A DNA stretch of 64,000 nt from Vicinamibacterales bacterium (GCA_963663195.1 OY760136.1:4359079-4423078); one strand, 5' to 3'; shown: positions 8,113-18,841, counted from the stretch's first letter. Notes: a model not told the origin generated them from the letters alone. Made by a program: numbers and translations.

Positions 8113-9210
8113 CTATACGAAGCGGACCAGACGCACGTTGAGGGTGCGCGTCTTGCCGCCGGCGCCCTTCCACTGAACGAGGATCGGGCTCTGGTAGGTG
8201 CCCCAGCCGATCTCTCCGACGCCCTCGCCCTGGCGGTCGAGGACGGGCAGGCTGATGCCGCGCTTCATCCGCAGGAAGTGGGACACCGGCAGCGCCAGCG
8301 CCCGGTTGACCATCCGCTCGACCAGCGAGCGGCGCGCGCCGACCTGGTCCACGAGCTTGTTGAACACCTGGACCACGTCGTACTGCGCGTAGTTGAGCAC
8401 CTTGGCCGGTATGGCGCGCGGCGCCTGGAGGGCCTCCCTTCCGATCTGCTTCGCGAAGCGCAGCGGGTCGCGCAGCACGTCCCGCAGATCGTGGGTCATG
8501 AGCAGGGTTTCGTATTCGTTGACCGTCAGGCCGGCGTTGCGCTCGTCAAGGGGCAGGGAGATTTCGAATCGCCCGAACGCCACCCCGTGCTCGCGCGCCA
8601 GCGTCTCCAACTGGCCGATCAGGCCGAGGCCCGGATCCCGCAGGTTCTGGGCGTCTATGGAACGCGCCGACGCGGGCACCTGGACCTGAATGCGGGAGAC
8701 TTCCTCTTCCCCGGCATAGGCGATTACCGTCGTGCGCCTGTGCCGGGTGCCCCCGACGTGGACCCCGTCCAGCTCCACGAACCACACCGGCTCGTCCCCG
8801 CGCAGCTCGTACGACGTGGCGCTGCGCAAACCGCTCCCCATGAACGCGAGGTGCGAATCCGCATTCTGCGGCTCGACGGCGCGCTGCTGCTCCGACAGCT
8901 CGGTGCGCAGGTGCAGCTTGTCGTGGACGTAGTCGGCGCCGGCCGGAAACAGCTTCAGGAATACCTGGAGGTAGTCCTCGATATTGCCGCTGTCGTGGTC
9001 CAGCACCTTTGCGAGACGCTGGTCCAGATAGCCGGCGGTCGTGTGGTCCGAGATGTAGAACGCCTTGGGATAGCGCGTGAACTCCGACCCGAATTCCTCG
9101 CGCAGCTTGCCGCGCACATCGATCAGATCGACGCGCGAAGCCGGTTTGATGCGCAGTGTCGCGTGGAACGGCCCACCATCCGCGTGGGTGTGCCGATTGA
9201 CCAGAATCAT
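8113..9210 (-). CDS. Hypothetical protein with two tandem YjbQ/UPF0047-like domains
   Basis: Domain 1 has HTTAG, YVHD, NADSHL and FVELDG..R.R. Domain 2 has AGLTVNE, SHF and GTYQ. Confidence 0.65.
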   Translation of the reverse strand: MILVNRHTHADGGPFHATLRIKPASRVDLIDVRGKLREEFGSEFTRYPKAFYISDHTTAGYLDQRLAKVLDHDSGNIEDYLQVFLKLFPAGADYVHDKLHLRTELSEQQRAVEPQNADSHLAFMGSGLRSATSYELRGDEPVWFVELDGVHVGGTRHRRTTVIAYAGEEEVSRIQVQVPASARSIDAQNLRDPGLGLIGQLETLAREHGVAFGRFEISLPLDERNAGLTVNEYETLLMTHDLRDVLRDPLRFAKQIGREALQAPRAIPAKVLNYAQYDVVQVFNKLVDQVGARRSLVERMVNRALALPVSHFLRMKRGISLPVLDRQGEGVGEIGWGTYQSPILVQWKGAGGKTRTLNVRLVRFV

Positions 9211-9304: not shown

Positions 9305-11116
9305 TTACGCCGGGCAGCAGGGGCACGTCGGAGCGGACGGTGCGAAGCTGCTGGAGGCAGCCTGCGCCCGTCCGGGAGTGGTCGCGGGCGCCCGGGCTGC
9401 GGCGGCCGCGGCCATCGCCGCGGAGGACGTACCGGCGGCTGCGCGCACAGGCCGTTCCCCGCGCCGGGCCTGCGCCGGCCGTTCGCCGCCGCCCCGGTAA
9501 CCGGTGAAGATCTGATAGTGGCGCAGGTCCACCGTGCCGTCGATGCGGATGGCGTCGGGGCCGGTCACCTCGAAACGCCGGAACGGCTCGCCGTCGCACA
9601 GGATGAACACCTGGGCGGGATCCGGCAGGTGCGTGATGCTCCAGCTCGTCTCCTGGCCGCGGCGGTCGGGCGCGGCGGCATAGGTGCCGACGTGCAGCAC
9701 ACCGCTTGCCGCGTCGTTCCACGCCTGGTAGAGCCCGAGCGTCGGGAAGTCGACACCCTCGACGGTCGGCGCGTCGTACTTGTCGCGGTGCGGCGCATCG
9801 AACGCCCGCTGCCAGGCATCGCCCTCGCCGACCTCGGCAACCATCTGCATGGCGCTGAGCTGCCCGCGCGGATAGCCCTCGTTCAGGCCGAACCACCAGC
9901 CGAACTTCTCGTCCCGCTCGCCGAAGAAGCGCGGGTCGAACTGCCGCTCGGCGGCGGCGCGCAACCGTTCGAGCGCCGTGTGATCGCCGAGCTCGCGCGC
10001 CAGGATCAACCCGGTCGAGTCGGCCCTGATCTCCCGGCGCGGATCGTTCCAACCGAGGGCCGTGGCCGCCGCCTCATAAAGGAATGTCGCCAGCTCGGGC
10101 TGCTGCGGCAGCAGCAGGAAGGCCGGCACCAGTCCGGCCCCGGCGCCGAGGTTCATCTTGTGGTTGACGACCGGGTCGTAGTAGAGAGTGACCCACTCCA
10201 GCGCGCCGTCGCCGCCGACGCCGACATAGTTGTCACGCGCGAACTCGATCCAGCCTTCCACCGGCCGATGCGCGGTGCGGCCATGGATTCGGTCGTACAG
10301 CTGAAGCCCGAGCCCGGCGGCGCTGTTGCAGGCGAACCAGATCTTGGTGTTCTCGCAGTGTGGACCCTCGGGGCGCTCGCGGTACTGCCGCTCCAGGAGC
10401 CCGGCGATGCGGTGCTGGTCCCACTGGAACACTTCGTCGCCGTAGCCGGTCACGTCGAACGGACGCTCGTACTTGTCGTCGCCCGACACGTAGCGGTAGA
10501 CGCCGAGCACCAGGTTGAACCAGCCGCGGAAGAACAGGTTCCCCTCGGAGCCGATCGGATCGCGCGACAGGCCCCAGGGCTCGACGCCGTTCGCCGTCCA
10601 CCCGATGCGGTTGTAGCGCCCGCGCAGCCGCTCCGGAATCGCGCCCATCACCTGCTCGGGATCGTTGGCGCGACGCGGGTCGTCGCCGATCTGCGTCAGC
10701 CAGTCGATGGCGCCCCAGTAGGTCGGGTAGCGGCTGGCGAGACCGTCGGCAATGCGCGTGTACACCTCGCGCCAGGCCGGCGTCTGGTCGGCCATCACGA
10801 GCAGCGCGTACGACGAGTTGTGCAGGTCGAAGCGGCCGTAGCTGGTGACGACCGGGCTGGTGTAGCGGTCCCACCACGGGTGCGGCACGCCGTCGGCGCT
10901 CCAGTCGTCCGGCGTGGTGGCCTTCTCCCACAGGAAGCGCAGCCAGCCGCGCGCGCGCCGGTTCAGGGTGGGATGGACGGATCGGGGCGTATCCGCGAGC
11001 TGCGGGGGCGCCTGCGCGGGTTGCGCGGCGAGAGCGCCGGACGAGAGCGCGGCGGCGCCGGCGGCGCCTACCTGCTGCACGAACGCGCGCCGGGAATGTC
11101 TGTCGCTGACGGCTAT
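9305..11116 (-). CDS. Linalool dehydratase/isomerase-like protein with Tat signal and Cys-rich tail
   Basis: CENTKIWFACN resembles LDI CEPDNYFVQCN, and GNLFFRGW resembles ENIMYKGH. An in-frame SRRAFV Tat motif lies upstream of the ORF-track GTG. An ATA at 11116 follows the Shine-Dalgarno (SD) sequence AGGGAGG. Confidence 0.7.
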   Translation of the reverse strand: MAVSDRHSRRAFVQQVGAAGAAALSSGALAAQPAQAPPQLADTPRSVHPTLNRRARGWLRFLWEKATTPDDWSADGVPHPWWDRYTSPVVTSYGRFDLHNSSYALLVMADQTPAWREVYTRIADGLASRYPTYWGAIDWLTQIGDDPRRANDPEQVMGAIPERLRGRYNRIGWTANGVEPWGLSRDPIGSEGNLFFRGWFNLVLGVYRYVSGDDKYERPFDVTGYGDEVFQWDQHRIAGLLERQYRERPEGPHCENTKIWFACNSAAGLGLQLYDRIHGRTAHRPVEGWIEFARDNYVGVGGDGALEWVTLYYDPVVNHKMNLGAGAGLVPAFLLLPQQPELATFLYEAAATALGWNDPRREIRADSTGLILARELGDHTALERLRAAAERQFDPRFFGERDEKFGWWFGLNEGYPRGQLSAMQMVAEVGEGDAWQRAFDAPHRDKYDAPTVEGVDFPTLGLYQAWNDAASGVLHVGTYAAAPDRRGQETSWSITHLPDPAQVFILCDGEPFRRFEVTGPDAIRIDGTVDLRHYQIFTGYRGGGERPAQARRGERPVRAAAGTSSAAMAAAAAARAPATTPGRAQAASSSFAPSAPTCPCCPA

Positions 11117-11178: not shown

Positions 11179-13329
<2,151 letters not shown>

Positions 13330-13501: not shown

Positions 13502-16024
13502 TCAGCAGCAGCCGGGCCCGCAATCGCCGCCGTCGACGGCCGCGACCTCGCGTGCGCCGGACGGGTCGTCGACTATGACGAACGAGCCGTCGTACGGCCG
13601 GTTCGACAGCTTGGCGGCCGTATCGGTGCACACTTCAACAGGTACGCCGCGCGGGAACAGGTGGCCTTCCTCGTCGATGACCGCCTTCTGCGGACCGAGG
13701 TAGACCGCGTACTGGCCGACGAACCGGCAGCCGGCCTTCTTCTCGAACTTGTAGCCGCGCACCGTCACCGAGAAGAACCGGCAGCCTTCGACCTCGCGCC
13801 ACGGCGTCTTCTTGAGGATGGCGACGCCGTAGAAGCCGGCCCGCTCCAGAGCGCTGAGAAACGCCTCCTCCGTCAGCGCCCCGCTGATGCACTCGCCCCA
13901 CAGCCGGCCGTCGGCGCGTACCTTGGGCGGCACGTCGCGGTCGGATACGATGTCGGCGATCACGGTGCGGCCATGGTCCTTGAGGACGCGCCAGATCTCG
14001 CGCAGCACGCGCGGCTTGTCCGCCGACAGGTTGATCACGCAGTTCGACGTCACCGCGTCGGCCACCGCGTCGTCGAGCGGAATCCGTTCCAGGAACCCCT
14101 TGCGGAACTCGACGGCGTCATAACCGAGCGCGGCCGCCACCTGCGGCTGGCTGTCGCGCGCCACGGCCAGCATCTGCTCGGTCATGTCCACGCCGTACAC
14201 GCGCCCCCCGGCGCCAACCTTGCGGGCGGCGATGAAGCAGTCGATGCCGGCCCCCGAGCCGAGGTCGACCATCGTCTCGCCGGCGGCGAGCGCCGCATCC
14301 GACACCGGGCTGCCGCAGCCGTAGAATCGTTCGACCACCTCCGGGGGAATGTGCGCCAGGTCCTCCGCCGCCGGCTGCACCGGACAGCAGAGGTCTCCCT
14401 TGGGCTCCTCGGCCGCCGCTCCGTAGTACTCCCTGACCGTCAACCGCGAGCGCTCCATCACCTCTTCCGACAGCACGCAGGCGGTGTGCGTCGTGCGGAC
14501 GATGGCCTGCTCGTCGTGCAGCATGTGCTCCCCCATCGCGCGGAACACGACCGGCCGGTCGAACCCCGATCGGGCCTGCACGGTCTGACGCCCTTCCTGC
14601 GACATCTCCGCCAACGCATCGTCGGCCAGCCCCTTGTACAGGTCGCAGTAGGGATCGTGCGCCAGGAAACTCCCCCGCCGCCCCGAGCCCTCCGTGGCCG
14701 AGGTCCAGTAACCGTGCTCGAGGTCGCCGCCGCCGCACAGGAACTTGAACACGCAGGACCGGCACAGCGGCTTCTTCTCGACGCTCGCCTCGCGCAGCTC
14801 GCGGCAGACGTCGCTTTCCCGCCAGATTTCCGCCAGCGGCGCGGCGGCCAGATCACCGCAGCGCAGCTCGGGGACGCCGGCGGTGGATGCGGACGGGTAC
14901 ACCCAGCCGTCCGTGTAGAGGCAGAGGCTGTTCCAGCCGGCGCCGGCCAGGTCGTTCTTCACCCCCGGAGCGCCGTCGAGACGCAGGCGAAACTCCTCCA
15001 CGTTGTCGATGGAGACGCCGATCTCGCCGGCCCTGCGGCGCGCCCCGCGCACCGCCCGCAGAATCTCGTCCGCGGACGGCAGCTCCGCGAACGGACCGCT
15101 CAGCATCCGGCCGCGGCGGTGCGGCCAGAGCAGATGGACATTGCCGATGCCGAGCTCACCGGCGAGGCGGACGATGTTCTCCAGATCGTCGAGGTTGTGC
15201 TTCAGGATCGTCGTGGTCAGCGTGGGACGCAGGCCGGCGGACACCGCGGCCTCGAGTCCGGCAATCGTCGCGGCGAAACTCCCCCGGCCACGCACCGGAT
15301 CGTTGATGTCGGCGCTCGAGCCGTCCAGGCTGACCTGGATGCGCAGGCTGTCGACCGGCGGCTCTCCTTCGCGCGCCGGCAGCTCGATCGCCGCCAGCTC
15401 GACGAGCGCCGCGAGCCGCTTGCCCATGAGCAGCGTGCCGTTGGTGAGGATCACCAGCTCCCGGCCGCGGGCCGCAATAACATGTCGGCACAGATCGACG
15501 ATGTCGGGGCGCGCCAGCGGCTCGCCGCCGGTGAAGAACACCCGCTCCGCGCCGAGCGCCGCCGCCTGGTCGATCGCGTCAACGATCCGTCCGGTCTCCA
15601 GCCCCTGGTCGCGCGTCGGCCCGGACGAGACGAGGCAGTGCGCGCACGCCAGGTTGCAGAAGTCGTTCACCTGCACCCACAGCTCGTGGAGCGCCGCGGT
15701 CGCCAGGTACGCCGAGCGGCCCAGGTAGGGGGCCGGCGCGGCGCCGTCCGTCGACAGGAAGCCATGCCGCAACGCGTCGCCGGCGAGCGTTTCCACGTGG
15801 AGCCACGCCCGCGTCACATCGAGCCCGGAGGCGTCGGCGTACTCCCTCACCACCTGCGCGAAGGGAGTGCGGCCGTCGAACTGGCCAAGGAGCCGGATAC
15901 CGCGGTCGTCGCTGGCAAGCCAGTGCGGCCTGGCCGGGTCCAGGGCAATCGCCTGGCCATCCGTGCGCCGGACGGAGAACGCCGGCGCGCGCAGCAGCGT
16001 CCCGTCATCGATGAATGTCGGCAT
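13502..16024 (-). CDS. Fusion of PqqD/RRE-like, radical SAM, degenerate SPASM and arsenite methyltransferase (ArsM/AS3MT-like) domains
   Basis: Radical SAM/SPASM part: CNLACAHC, FTGGEP, CRSCVFKFLCGGGD...PYC. ArsM part: FYGCGSP, DLGSGAGIDC, SNCVINL, GECISGA, VEVC. C-terminal CGPGCC. Confidence 0.85.
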   Translation of the reverse strand: MPTFIDDGTLLRAPAFSVRRTDGQAIALDPARPHWLASDDRGIRLLGQFDGRTPFAQVVREYADASGLDVTRAWLHVETLAGDALRHGFLSTDGAAPAPYLGRSAYLATAALHELWVQVNDFCNLACAHCLVSSGPTRDQGLETGRIVDAIDQAAALGAERVFFTGGEPLARPDIVDLCRHVIAARGRELVILTNGTLLMGKRLAALVELAAIELPAREGEPPVDSLRIQVSLDGSSADINDPVRGRGSFAATIAGLEAAVSAGLRPTLTTTILKHNLDDLENIVRLAGELGIGNVHLLWPHRRGRMLSGPFAELPSADEILRAVRGARRRAGEIGVSIDNVEEFRLRLDGAPGVKNDLAGAGWNSLCLYTDGWVYPSASTAGVPELRCGDLAAAPLAEIWRESDVCRELREASVEKKPLCRSCVFKFLCGGGDLEHGYWTSATEGSGRRGSFLAHDPYCDLYKGLADDALAEMSQEGRQTVQARSGFDRPVVFRAMGEHMLHDEQAIVRTTHTACVLSEEVMERSRLTVREYYGAAAEEPKGDLCCPVQPAAEDLAHIPPEVVERFYGCGSPVSDAALAAGETMVDLGSGAGIDCFIAARKVGAGGRVYGVDMTEQMLAVARDSQPQVAAALGYDAVEFRKGFLERIPLDDAVADAVTSNCVINLSADKPRVLREIWRVLKDHGRTVIADIVSDRDVPPKVRADGRLWGECISGALTEEAFLSALERAGFYGVAILKKTPWREVEGCRFFSVTVRGYKFEKKAGCRFVGQYAVYLGPQKAVIDEEGHLFPRGVPVEVCTDTAAKLSNRPYDGSFVIVDDPSGAREVAAVDGGDCGPGCC

Positions 16025-16138: not shown

Positions 16139-17446
16139 TCAGCGCGCTGGGGATTCATCCGGGCGCCGGCGCACCGCCCAGGCGGCGGCGAGCGCGGCGA
16201 TCAACAGGCCGTACTCGACCGGCTCCACCCAGCCAGGCAACACCCAGCCGGCGCCGGACGCGCGCACGGTCCACACGATGTAGGTCAGTGGCGCGGCGAG
16301 GGTCCAGGCGATCAACGGCCACGCGCGCGGCGCCGCCAGGAACGGGATCATCCAGACGAGGTACCACGGGTAGACCGTCGGTAACAGGAGGAGCGTCGCC
16401 GCGAGCGGCCACGCCCACGCCTCCGGGGCCGTTGCCGGCAGGTGCGCGCGCGCCGCGGCGGCCGCGGCCATCCCGGCGCCGACCGCGAGGGCGAACGCGA
16501 CGGGCGCGCCCACCGCGGCCTCGATCCACGCGAACAGCGGTCCGTTGAAACGCCACTGCGCGGCGTACTGCGGCAGCGAACCGATCGGGACCGTCACCGC
16601 GCCGCCGACGAACGGCAGGTACAACAGGCCCACGGCCGCGACGGCCGCCAGACCGTCGCGCAGGCGCACGCGGCGCCACAGCAGCGGCGCCAGCACCAGC
16701 GGCAGGAACTTGACGCTGAACGCCGCCGCCAGTGCGAGCGACGCGGCGAACGTGCGGCGCGCATGGAGCGCGGCAGCGGCGGCGACCACGAGCAGCGTCC
16801 CGAGCAGATCGATGTGGCCGGCCGCCGCGCCCTCGATGGCAGGCAGCGGATGCCAGGCATACACGAGCACCCACCACGGACTGCGGCCGCACGCCGCCAG
16901 CCAGCGCCACAGCAGCAGCATGATCAGCAGGTCGCACACGATCATGGCCGCGGCGACGGCCGTCACCGATTCGTGGATGGCCGTGACGGCGCGCAGGAAG
17001 AGCTGCGCGGCGGGCGGGTAGATTGCCGGCAGGACCGCGCTGGTCGGATCGATTCGGCGCGTATCCGCGGTGTGCAGCCCCGCCAGCGCCGGGTCGGCGG
17101 GCGCCGCGGCGTACGGGTTGTAGCCGTAGCGCTGCACCCGCCCGTCCCAGAGGTAGCGATAGACGTCATCGGACGCTATCGGCGCGGCGCCCAGCAGCAG
17201 GAGGCGGCCGGCGATGGCGATCAGCAGGCATGCGGCGAGCTGCCGGCGAGAACCGTGCCGGCGGCGCACCAGCAGCAGCAGCGTGGCGACGTAGGCAACC
17301 GAAGCGCCCCCGAGCAGCCACAGGAACGGCAGCGTTGCGACCCGCGCATCCAGGTGCGAGACGCCGGCCAGTAGCAGCAGCTGGGCCGCGCCGCAGGCGA
17401 GGATCCACCACGGGGCGGCGCCGCGGTGCGGCCGCGCGGTATCCAT
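16139..17446 (-). CDS. Polytopic GT-C (GT87/DUF2029-like) membrane glycosyltransferase
   Basis: SDDVYRYLWDG, NPY, YPP, YAWHPL..E...GHID, VKFLP and YPWY motifs with many TM helices. The start overlaps the upstream stop (TAATG). Confidence 0.75.
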   Translation of the reverse strand: MDTARPHRGAAPWWILACGAAQLLLLAGVSHLDARVATLPFLWLLGGASVAYVATLLLLVRRRHGSRRQLAACLLIAIAGRLLLLGAAPIASDDVYRYLWDGRVQRYGYNPYAAAPADPALAGLHTADTRRIDPTSAVLPAIYPPAAQLFLRAVTAIHESVTAVAAAMIVCDLLIMLLLWRWLAACGRSPWWVLVYAWHPLPAIEGAAAGHIDLLGTLLVVAAAAALHARRTFAASLALAAAFSVKFLPLVLAPLLWRRVRLRDGLAAVAAVGLLYLPFVGGAVTVPIGSLPQYAAQWRFNGPLFAWIEAAVGAPVAFALAVGAGMAAAAAARAHLPATAPEAWAWPLAATLLLLPTVYPWYLVWMIPFLAAPRAWPLIAWTLAAPLTYIVWTVRASGAGWVLPGWVEPVEYGLLIAALAAAWAVRRRPDESPAR

Positions 17447-18180
17447 TACCGGGATCCGTCCGGCGGCCCGTAGTAGGCGCGCGCGAGGCGCGCCGTCGGC
17501 ACGCCGGCGGCGTACCCCAATAGCAGCAGCAAGTTGAGGGCGGTCCGCCGCGTCCAACCGTCCCGCTCCCAGCGCCGCGCCGACGTCAGGATCGGGACCT
17601 CGAGGTACGCCATCCGTCCGCTGCACCGCACGCGCCGCGCCAGATCGACATCCTCCATCAGCGGCAGCGGCCGGTACCCGCCGAGCTGCTCGAACAGCGC
17701 CCGGCGCACGAAGATCCCCTGGTCGCCGTACGGCAACCCCATCCACCGGACGCGCCACGCGACACCGCGCTCCACGATCCGGGCGCGCCAGTCGGCGGAA
17801 CGCAGCGTCAGCCGCAGCGCGCCGCCGACCGTCAGCGGATCCGGGTCGATGCGGCGGATCTCGTCCAGCCAGCCCGGCGCCGGGCAGGCGTCGGCATGCA
17901 GGAACAGCAGCCACGCGCCGGACGCCGCCTGCGCGCCCGCGTTCATCTGCCGCGCGCGTCCGGGCTCGGCGACCATCCAGCGCACGGCCTCGAAGCGCGC
18001 CTGTAGCGGCCCGATCGCGCAATCCCCCGCGTCGCCATTGGCCACGATTACTTCGCAGCCGCCACTCCGCGCGATCTCGGCCGGCAACTGCCGCAGCAGC
18101 TCGCCCAGCAGCCGCTCGAGCTCCGCGGCATCGTGGAGCACCGGAATGACAATCGATACGAGCGGACTGTCAGCAACCAC
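17446..18180 (-). CDS. TIGR04283-type family 2 glycosyltransferase (rSAM/selenodomain- and arsenosugar-associated)
   Basis: SIVIPV, GRARQMNAGA, LLFLHAD, YGDQGIFVRR, LPLMEDVDL and TSARRW motifs. Confidence 0.85.
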   Translation of the reverse strand: MVADSPLVSIVIPVLHDAAELERLLGELLRQLPAEIARSGGCEVIVANGDAGDCAIGPLQARFEAVRWMVAEPGRARQMNAGAQAASGAWLLFLHADACPAPGWLDEIRRIDPDPLTVGGALRLTLRSADWRARIVERGVAWRVRWMGLPYGDQGIFVRRALFEQLGGYRPLPLMEDVDLARRVRCSGRMAYLEVPILTSARRWERDGWTRRTALNLLLLLGYAAGVPTARLARAYYGPPDGSR

Positions 18181-18841
18181 CGTCCAGCCCCAGAAAGGCC
18201 GCCGTCTCCGTCCGCACGCGGTCGATGCTGGCGGCCAGCCTGTGGTCGTCATCCAGCAGCACCAGGCGCACGTGCGCGCGGCCGTCCGCGAATCGCCGGA
18301 CCATGTCGGGGTCGACCACCTCGTCGCCGCGCCCGTGGAGGACGAGCATCGGCGTTTCCGCGCGCACCGCGAACGAGTCGTAGCGCGCGGCGTCGGCGAT
18401 CAGCTCGAAGTGCAGCCGCCGCGGCTCGTCGTATCCGTGGTGCTGCACCTCGGTCCAACCGTCCCGCCGCCAGCGCGCGAGCCAGTCCGTCTGGCGTTCG
18501 CGCATGCCGGGCGCCCCGAAGTCGAACGCGGGCGCCAGCAGCACGAGCCGCTCGACCGGGTGGGCGGGCAGCGCCGAGCGGAGGTGCTCCGCCAGGTGCA
18601 GCGCCACGAATCCGCCCAGGCTCGAACCGATCAGCGCGACCGGCGCCGGCGGCAGGCGACGCAGCGCGGCGGTTACCTGGCCGATCATCCGCGTGGTCGT
18701 CAGCGTGGAGAAATCGGGCTCGTTCAGGTCGGGACAGTGCAGCGTCAGACCGCGCGCGGTGAACTGCTCCGCCAGGAAGCGGGCCTTGCCGGAGCGGGGC
18801 GACGACGCCAGTCCGTGGAGGTAGAAGAAGTGGCGCGGCAT
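18170..18841 (-). CDS. YqiA/YcfP (UPF0227) alpha/beta hydrolase
   Basis: YLHGLASSP, GSSLGG nucleophile elbow, HGRGDEVV and DDHRL. Confidence 0.88.
   Translation of the reverse strand: MPRHFFYLHGLASSPRSGKARFLAEQFTARGLTLHCPDLNEPDFSTLTTTRMIGQVTAALRRLPPAPVALIGSSLGGFVALHLAEHLRSALPAHPVERLVLLAPAFDFGAPGMRERQTDWLARWRRDGWTEVQHHGYDEPRRLHFELIADAARYDSFAVRAETPMLVLHGRGDEVVDPDMVRRFADGRAHVRLVLLDDDHRLAASIDRVRTETAAFLGLDGGC

Follow-up and report, generated by a model that had tools for sequence, protein, structure and literature searches.

In the parts of the literature examined, only two families of radical S-adenosylmethionine (SAM) enzymes that form arsenic-carbon (As-C) bonds are described, ArsS and ArsL, both of which work with the arsenite methyltransferase ArsM. 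ArsS (TIGR04167), a radical SAM domain joined to DUF3641, belongs to the arsenosugar pathway of Synechocystis sp. PCC 6803, and SsArsS acts together with SsArsM according to PMC8552651. As set out in two reports (PMC13598754; bioRxiv 10.64898/2026.04.29.721666), ArsS adds a 5'-deoxyadenosyl radical to dimethyl-As(III), or DMAs(III), to give DDMAA; no reductant is consumed overall, as the cluster regains its electron from the arsenic radical, and the adenosylation is described as redox-neutral in the first of them. ArsL, which with ArsM makes arsinothricin, binds As(III) through C-terminal cysteines, as described in bioRxiv 2024.02.01.577332 and 10.64898/2026.04.29.721666. Here, we describe a gene (P0001; positions 13502-16024, minus strand) in a 64,000-nucleotide stretch of DNA, hereafter the window, from a Vicinamibacterales bacterium (GCA_963663195.1 OY760136.1:4359079-4423078), whose single 840-residue product joins an RRE-like, a radical SAM, a SPASM and an ArsM domain. 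Its domains and its distribution among genomes suggest that this fusion works like ArsM plus ArsS, methylating arsenic and adenosylating dimethyl-As(III) to DDMAA, a reading to which we give a probability of roughly 0.6. No description of the family was found in the literature covered, outside which most subscription papers lie.

The gene is one open reading frame with an ATG start. From the N-terminus, all on the minus strand, it encodes an RRE/PqqD-like domain (residues about 14-90; 15755-15985), a radical SAM core (residues about 112-340; 15005-15691) with the CxxxCxxC motif at 15635-15658, a degenerate SPASM domain recognised by Pfam and cysteine alignment (residues 355-462; 14639-14962), a linker (residues 490-520; 14465-14557) with a conserved M497 and an HxxC motif whose C516 lies at 14477-14479, an ArsM/AS3MT domain with its C-domain (residues 526-820; 13565-14449) matched in PDB, Foldseek and VIA searches, and a CxxxCC end (13505-13522). 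Pfam matched Radical_SAM (PF04055) at residues 119-288 (E 3e-24), Methyltransf_31 at 581-729 (E 2e-28) and SPASM at 362-424 (E 7e-5, barely above the gathering score). The AlphaFold2 model (mean pLDDT 92.1) matches the CteB and ArsM folds, and its pTM of 0.89 predicts a fixed packing of the domains. In the C-terminal end, C839 is present in 121 and C840 in 120 of 121 closely related rows, with low model confidence there (pLDDT <50 at 831-834). An earlier note on this DNA, made from the sequence alone, had read the gene as just such a single-chain fusion, and the reading frame, Pfam domains and structure matches agree with it; every motif that it quoted is present in the translation, namely CNLACAHC (C123, C127 and C130), LAGAG, VYPSA, LCC (C546 and C547), FYGCG, SNCV, GECISGA, the terminal CC and CxxCx5Cx3D...C (C421, C424, C430, D434 and C460). 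An assembly artefact, which the note had allowed for, is excluded by the presence of the full one-frame fusion in 19 of 61 related genomes, the window's own included. A public contig covers the stretch with zero differences and is possibly the source of this same DNA.

The ArsM half is a complete ArsM/AS3MT domain, as had been claimed, with a class I methyltransferase fold and the ArsM N- and C-domains. By sequence, it matches PDB entries with E values from 2.5e-39 to 5e-34 (5evj, CrArsM, 2.5e-39; CmArsM, 2.6e-36), and by structure its residues 544-820 match chain positions 42-342 of CmArsM, through the C-domain. Residues C570, C662 and C712 align with C72, C174 and C224 of CmArsM, as counted in the alignment to 4kw7/4fr0, while C546/C547 stand at the N-terminal cysteines of CrArsM; the ArsM cysteine set is present in 121 of 121 close rows, and the N-terminal pair is missing in about 23 of 38 diverse rows. 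Fold, C-domain and catalytic cysteines are thus shared with CrArsM (5evj), CmArsM (4fr0/4kw7) and human AS3MT (8xt7), whereas here the domain is fused behind a radical enzyme. All NCBIfam models fall below cut-off on the fusion protein; the top one is the arsenite methyltransferase model PRK11873, with 227 of 263 bits over model positions 42-235, and AsSugarArsM reaches 149 against 400. The nearest ArsM outside the family, at 58%, is that of an ArsS-ArsM fusion (P0167). In a tree of 87 rows, a subset picked by hand and supported by SH-aLRT only, the closest to the fused ArsM are ArsMs that are joined to, or stand beside, ArsS or a third radical type (see below), and not stand-alone PRK11873 proteins; an exchange of radical modules on a single ArsM lineage would leave such a pattern.

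The radical half falls outside ArsS, ArsL and the named SPASM families. TIGR04167 gives 52.9 bits against a cut-off of 300 and covers only positions 3-147 of 303, a profile-profile comparison with ArsS is likewise limited to 147 core columns, and neither a PF12345 match nor the DUF3641-type HCxGCTAGxGSSC end of ArsS was found on the fusion. ArsS resembles the fusion in pairing its core with ArsM, in a His before the third cluster Cys and in sharing the partners TIGR04283, TIGR04282, TIGR04169-like, VTT, MerA-like and DUF547; it differs in that the fusion has an RRE and a SPASM-length domain in place of DUF3641, together with another C-terminal cysteine motif. ArsL is similar in that a radical SAM enzyme acts with ArsM and in that arsenic would be held by C-terminal cysteines, but the ArsL/RCCLKC-tail model NF040542 has no match at the fusion locus, the RCCLKC motif is absent from the fusion, and the neighbours are of the arsenosugar type. 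Another radical SAM protein (G000:C1:4475969-4477309) scores 252 bits to the RCCLKC-tail model (cut-off 450) and ends in WYC, not RCCLKC. In trees of 97 and 51 of 127 core sequences, picked by hand, the family forms one moderately supported group (SH-aLRT 83; 79/88 in the second tree). Its sister is a third, unnamed type (97; 87/94), in which a short twitch domain is combined with a cysteine end resembling that of ArsS. ArsS is a long branch there, and a clade of family, third type and ArsS has a p-AU of 0.47 and is not rejected, so that both a common and a separate origin from ArsS agree with the trees. Scores, profile comparison and trees together support the earlier suggestion that ArsM is partnered here with a radical SAM enzyme of another class. 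The third type, whose core is the nearest to that of this family, is about 300 residues long, has a CxxC...SC end like that of ArsS and occurs either joined to ArsM or beside it (L050:595-2463, L063, L066, L075 and L262-L264; P0154, P0223, P0249 and P0260); it stands in an arsenosugar-type cassette at L063 and L066, and the members scanned fall below every NCBIfam cut-off. ArsS-ArsM fusions also exist, in both orders (P0167, P0264 and P0269 over the TIGR04167 cut-off, P0235 at it), so fusion of a radical enzyme to ArsM is not unique as such.

Genome distribution says that the fusion stands in for ArsS. In the window's family (f1, 37 genomes), 17 genomes carry the fusion and 19 carry ArsS over cut-off, with both in two, where 8.7 would be expected, and neither in three. 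Within genus g1 (14 genomes), four have the fusion only, nine ArsS only, none both and one, 71% complete, neither; a stand-alone ArsM is found in eight of the nine ArsS genomes, and the four fusion genomes have only the fused ArsM. The ArsS genomes of the genus have nothing in the fusion slot, which is flanked by the GT87-like and Tes-like genes; their arsS is at another site, beside a TIGR04169 gene. Remnants of arsS occur in fusion carriers: in G019, it is reduced at the syntenic site to residues 232-347, the last third, and the peroxidase-like partner is gone, and in G031, one of the two f1 genomes with both genes, its frame shifts near residue 325, unless this is an error of assembly. In a sample of 301 genomes from a second phylum, centred on a Hydrosulfovibrio genome (G307) and reported without completeness values, the fusion family was found in 30, ArsS in 111 and TIGR04283 in 153; 29 of the 30 carriers have TIGR04283 and three have ArsS (expected 11.1, or 20.1 within TIGR04283 genomes), and 26 of 47 TIGR04283 genomes without ArsS carry the fusion family. 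ArsS had no match, among the matches listed, in ten distant carriers, one of them G307 and all without stated completeness; the scan of distant contigs used one ArsM-motif pattern and gave at least 80 loci, mostly other ArsMs. Because kin carry the fusion or ArsS and rarely both, the fusion is likely to be a second route to the carbon-arsenic precursor that ArsS makes. The assignment of an ArsM domain by the earlier note stands, and the product, which it had left open, is narrowed by genome context to the ArsS step of the arsenosugar-type gene set, so that adenosylation of dimethyl-As(III) becomes more likely than an undefined alkyl product.

Several findings count against this conclusion. Kin are not independent, so the Fisher values (1e-5 and 2e-13) and the tallies overstate the exclusion. 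A phylum-wide sample of the window's phylum has no exclusion signal: seven of 261 genomes are carriers, two of them with ArsS, against ArsS in 52 of 261 overall (the five non-kin carriers in that sample all have TIGR04283). Both genes are present in G015, G224, G393, G542 and G564. An ArsM match was absent with two queries from eight of the 19 ArsS genomes of f1, and in 18 of the 153 TIGR04283 genomes the queries used detected no radical enzyme of any of the three types, the third type being found in only three of the 21 that lack both fusion family and ArsS; the cassette thus appears looser than a fixed pathway. Two stand-alone relatives (L172 and P0173) end without HxxC, and a homology between the linker and the Cys-rich end of ArsS, suspected from 'HC..C', was rejected (hhalign probability <=1.5%); in our reading of the profiles, that end rather resembles an AuxII motif cut short. 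Among the neighbours, 30 of 64 family loci have a flank free of cassette markers, some contigs being short. In the window's family, the TIGR04283 gene is at the fusion site with or without the fusion, and the adjacency there is therefore one inherited event. Moreover, no test of the 'arsenosugar' labels of TIGR04283, TIGR04282 and TIGR04169, which are NCBI names, was found in the literature. As a separate observation, the loci in which arsS and its TIGR04169 partner occur without an ArsM match to the two queries are L130-L139 (G020, G022, G023 and G033-G036) and L126 (G006), L130 having an unassigned open reading frame directly after arsS; such genomes may take up methylated arsenic or have a divergent methyltransferase.

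From the domains, ArsM cysteines, neighbours and either-or distribution, all of them observed, we infer the following steps. The ArsM half would methylate As(III) twice, and dimethyl-As(III), needing one thiol, would pass to the linker C516. The radical core would then cleave SAM, the 5'-deoxyadenosyl radical would add to arsenic to give DDMAA, and the arsenic radical would hand its electron back to the core cluster, as in ArsS, before transferases of the TIGR04283 and TIGR04282 families process the product further. A single thiol binds dimethyl-As(III), in keeping with C516 as the one invariant cysteine of the linker. Among 38 diverse full-length fusions with a mean identity of 34%, no more than seven cysteines are invariant, namely the cluster triad (38 of 38), C516 in the linker HxxC and three ArsM cysteines, and C516, present in 38 of 38 rows of alignment A2 and in 60 of 67 rows when fragments are included, is the sole one not explained by cluster or ArsM. 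C368 and C389 are invariant in the 121 close rows but occur in only 10 and 13 of the 38 diverse rows. With the electron returned to the core cluster, the SPASM clusters would be dispensable and could decay; an addition that is redox-neutral, as with ArsS, would have no use for an auxiliary electron sink, consistent with the loss of SPASM ligands. A360, G363, S378 and D434 stand where full-SPASM relatives carry Cys, and AuxII retains four cysteines (421, 424, 430 and 460). The remodelled SPASM domain of the earlier note is thus correct as to the non-Cys LAGAG and VYPSA and the retained AuxII. The Asp, however, which the note had placed in the AuxII motif, belongs to AuxI if D434 is presumed, by analogy with the anSME ligands, to occupy the fourth AuxI ligand position; AuxI has then lost all four ligands. 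Across the family, some members have eight SPASM cysteines, this clade lacks the four of AuxI and the DUF5714 forms lack both sets, from which two clusters are predicted for the fusion and one for the DUF5714 forms.

An As-C product other than DDMAA, by adenosylation after a single methylation, aminocarboxypropyl transfer as by ArsL or methyl-arsenic radical coupling, is unlikely, although several observations speak for it: the scaffold differs from that of ArsS, both genes are kept in several genomes, the two or three linker cysteines of full-SPASM relatives would suffice for less methylated arsenic, and ArsL is an example of a CxxxCxxC enzyme with another mode of SAM cleavage. The strong exclusion of ArsS and the decay of arsS in carriers instead point to redundancy, the downstream transferases belong to the same families, and the RCCLKC-tail family is unmatched at the fusion locus, all of which speaks against another product.

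Gene neighbourhoods agree with an ArsS-like role for the fusion family, which is associated, as ArsS is, with ArsM and genes of the TIGR04283, TIGR04282 and TIGR04169 types, families that are arsenosugar-associated by NCBI naming. In the relatives G048 and G051, the usual cassette comprises ArsM, ArsS, a VTT protein, a MerA-like oxidoreductase, TIGR04283 and TIGR04282; in the window's genome, TIGR04283, TIGR04282, the VTT protein, the MerA-like oxidoreductase and DUF547 are scattered, and no ArsS was found. In distant lineages, the family stands inside such cassettes, with the orders DUF547, fusion, TIGR04283-TIGR04282 in a planctomycete (L048), fusion-VTT-TIGR04282-TIGR04283 in Terriglobia (L049) and MerA-like-fusion-VTT in Hydrosulfovibrio (L058). 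Stand-alone family members occur in a cassette without ArsM, as at L227, where TIGR04282, a TIGR04169-like gene (109 bits, cut-off 120), the family enzyme and TIGR04283 share one strand. At least one of six ArsS-cassette markers is found in the fetched flank of 34 of 64 family loci, and a TIGR04283, TIGR04282 or TIGR04169-like gene in 25 of 64. It is distinctly improbable that the radical half serves this cassette in a step other than As-C formation, or that the cassette handles another metalloid or thiol-bound substrate with arsenic as a side substrate. ArsS genomes without detectable ArsM, the near-universal TIGR04283 in f1 (36 of 37 genomes), the in-frame TGA of many ArsS matches and the listing of ArsS/ArsM as selenoproteins in PMC13188914 speak for such a role. 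Against it, the arsenic reaction of ArsS is demonstrated, the family replaces ArsS gene for gene, and the fused domain retains the arsenic-binding cysteine set.

In fold, the radical half is an RRE-radical SAM-SPASM protein of the peptide-maturase kind. Its closest folds are CteB, anSME, ChlB, SuiB, SkfB and TigE, and residues 14-478 superpose on CteB with Z 30.6 and rmsd 4.4 over 409 aligned positions. The PqqD/RRE-like segment of about 90 residues proposed earlier is borne out by its fold (three strands then three helices, residues 17-86), by superposition on the N-termini of CteB and TigE, by PqqD as the first Atlas match (score 0.90) and by PF05402, which matches homologues (P0114, P0116 and six of 50 scanned) and not the segment itself, for which Pfam gave no match. 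Profile scans thus recover the radical SAM, SPASM and methyltransferase parts of the expected architecture directly, and the RRE on homologues only. The maturases CteB, TigE, SkfB, PqqE and MftC, together with anSME, share domain order and fold (Z 26-31), whereas the fusion has no AuxI ligands, no nearby precursor peptide and scores under all cut-offs, and is fused to ArsM. No conserved small open reading frame was found within 1.5 kb on each side, same strand, at 64 loci, a peptide encoded elsewhere being possible; such small-frame clusters as turned up, in no more than eight kin loci, are shadow frames of adjacent genes, and the RRE is left without an evident external ligand. A peptide maturase or unrelated radical enzyme fused by chance to a detoxifying ArsM, which the fold, the RRE and the best NCBIfam radical matches (MftC, StsB, AhbD and ScmF, 105-111 bits, all far under their cut-offs) might suggest, is very improbable given the missing precursor, the lost auxiliary ligands, stand-alone members in a cassette without ArsM and an exclusion of ArsS that a passenger would not produce.

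A more tentative extension of the proposed ArsM-plus-ArsS function is that a peptide-maturase chassis became an arsenic assembly line in one chain, with its own linker serving as a tethered substrate. The strand at 493-496 might bind the RRE in the manner of a leader peptide, the next segment might carry C516, loaded with dimethyl-arsenic, to a radical site opened by the loss of AuxI, and As(III) would leave as DDMAA with no free toxic intermediate; the fusion family, the third type and ArsS could then be three stages of one SPASM-derived arsenic radical lineage, and this picture as a whole, lineage included, is speculative. Hints at the place of the linker are indirect: residues 491-500 have pLDDT 92 and a strand in the full model, against about 57-68 and no strand in a model without the RRE, a comparison confounded by 25 versus 150 rows and by the missing ArsM, and the alignments of viperin, BlsE and full-barrel enzymes reach model residues 519-525 (ranges only).

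The family is broad. Searches gave 554 homologous proteins among 7996 scored candidates, the best 120 of the 554 being 69-89% identical over 92-100% of the length; source names point to Acidobacteriota and Vicinamibacterales and, farther away, to Planctomycetes, Omnitrophica, Rokubacteria and Nitrospiria, the diverse relatives being collected among representatives at 50% identity. Members (>250 bits) stand apart from the nearest other SPASM proteins (<196) with a profile (A3) that spans core, SPASM and linker, applied to five genomes at low stringency and to the fetched loci. Forms include the 840-residue fusion, proteins of 1000-1100 residues with a C-terminal DUF5714, ArsM-first fusions, stand-alone radical proteins and one TIGR04283 fusion. 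DUF5714 of P0131 and of other long forms weakly matches the model of the metal-binding double selenoprotein MbdU (159 bits, cut-off 600), and a second, stand-alone DUF5714 gene lies upstream at L222:10500. Full-SPASM relatives such as P0198, P0215, P0185, P0188 and P0226 have a C-terminal partner other than ArsM, which is TusA in P0198 and a methyltransferase without the ArsM cysteine set in P0185, P0188 and P0226; the family may include members with other jobs. In a Gemmatimonadetes record (L045:7473-10418), one in-frame stop splits the fusion directly past the SPASM part.

Around the gene in the window, a GT87-like membrane glycosyltransferase of about 435 residues (16139-17446, minus strand; weak MptB match, with PF09594 on orthologues) lies upstream, 114 bases before the fusion, and is itself preceded by the TIGR04283 glycosyltransferase (17446-18252, minus strand; 213 bits, cut-off 182). 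On the other side, also on the minus strand, are a Tes-like radical SAM protein (11179-13329; 309 bits to the tetraether lipid synthase model, cut-off 450), a linalool dehydratase/isomerase-like protein (9305-11080; PF18566, E 6e-15) and a 365-residue protein without family match (8113-9210), a homologue of which (weak UPF0047) adjoins the ArsM-ArsS cassette of G051 (L041). A functional link to the Tes-like gene was considered and rejected, as that gene is conserved here across the family whether the fusion is present or not. In eight kin loci (L026, L028, L030, L031, L033, L034, L038 and L040), msrPQ stands directly before the fusion, and in most of them a sarcosine-oxidase-like FAD enzyme and AlkB follow it; these genes occur at the same site in kin without the fusion too. 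A betaine/choline-type ABC transporter is found two genes upstream at L035:13272-15595 (G050), and a PHO4 phosphate transporter directly after the fusion at L047:12400-13512; uptake of arsenic species is a possible role for both. A promoter and terminator scan around the fusion gave nothing better than chance. Two RNA runs yielded contigs of a relative, about 90% identical over the gene, one of them across the radical/ArsM junction, although contigs alone show no transcription, and near-identical gene pieces occur in one public run labelled as a sponge metagenome.

With ArsM and the radical enzyme in one soluble chain, the passage of methylated arsenic from the first to the second becomes open to direct test. 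Carriers account for about half of the genomes in the window's family and for 10% of those sampled in the second phylum; if the ArsS reaction is indeed theirs, surveys based on arsS would overlook many producers. The fusion would, moreover, be one of few instances in which an RRE serves with no separate peptide, and the pieces from the sponge metagenome bear on bacterial sources of marine organoarsenicals.

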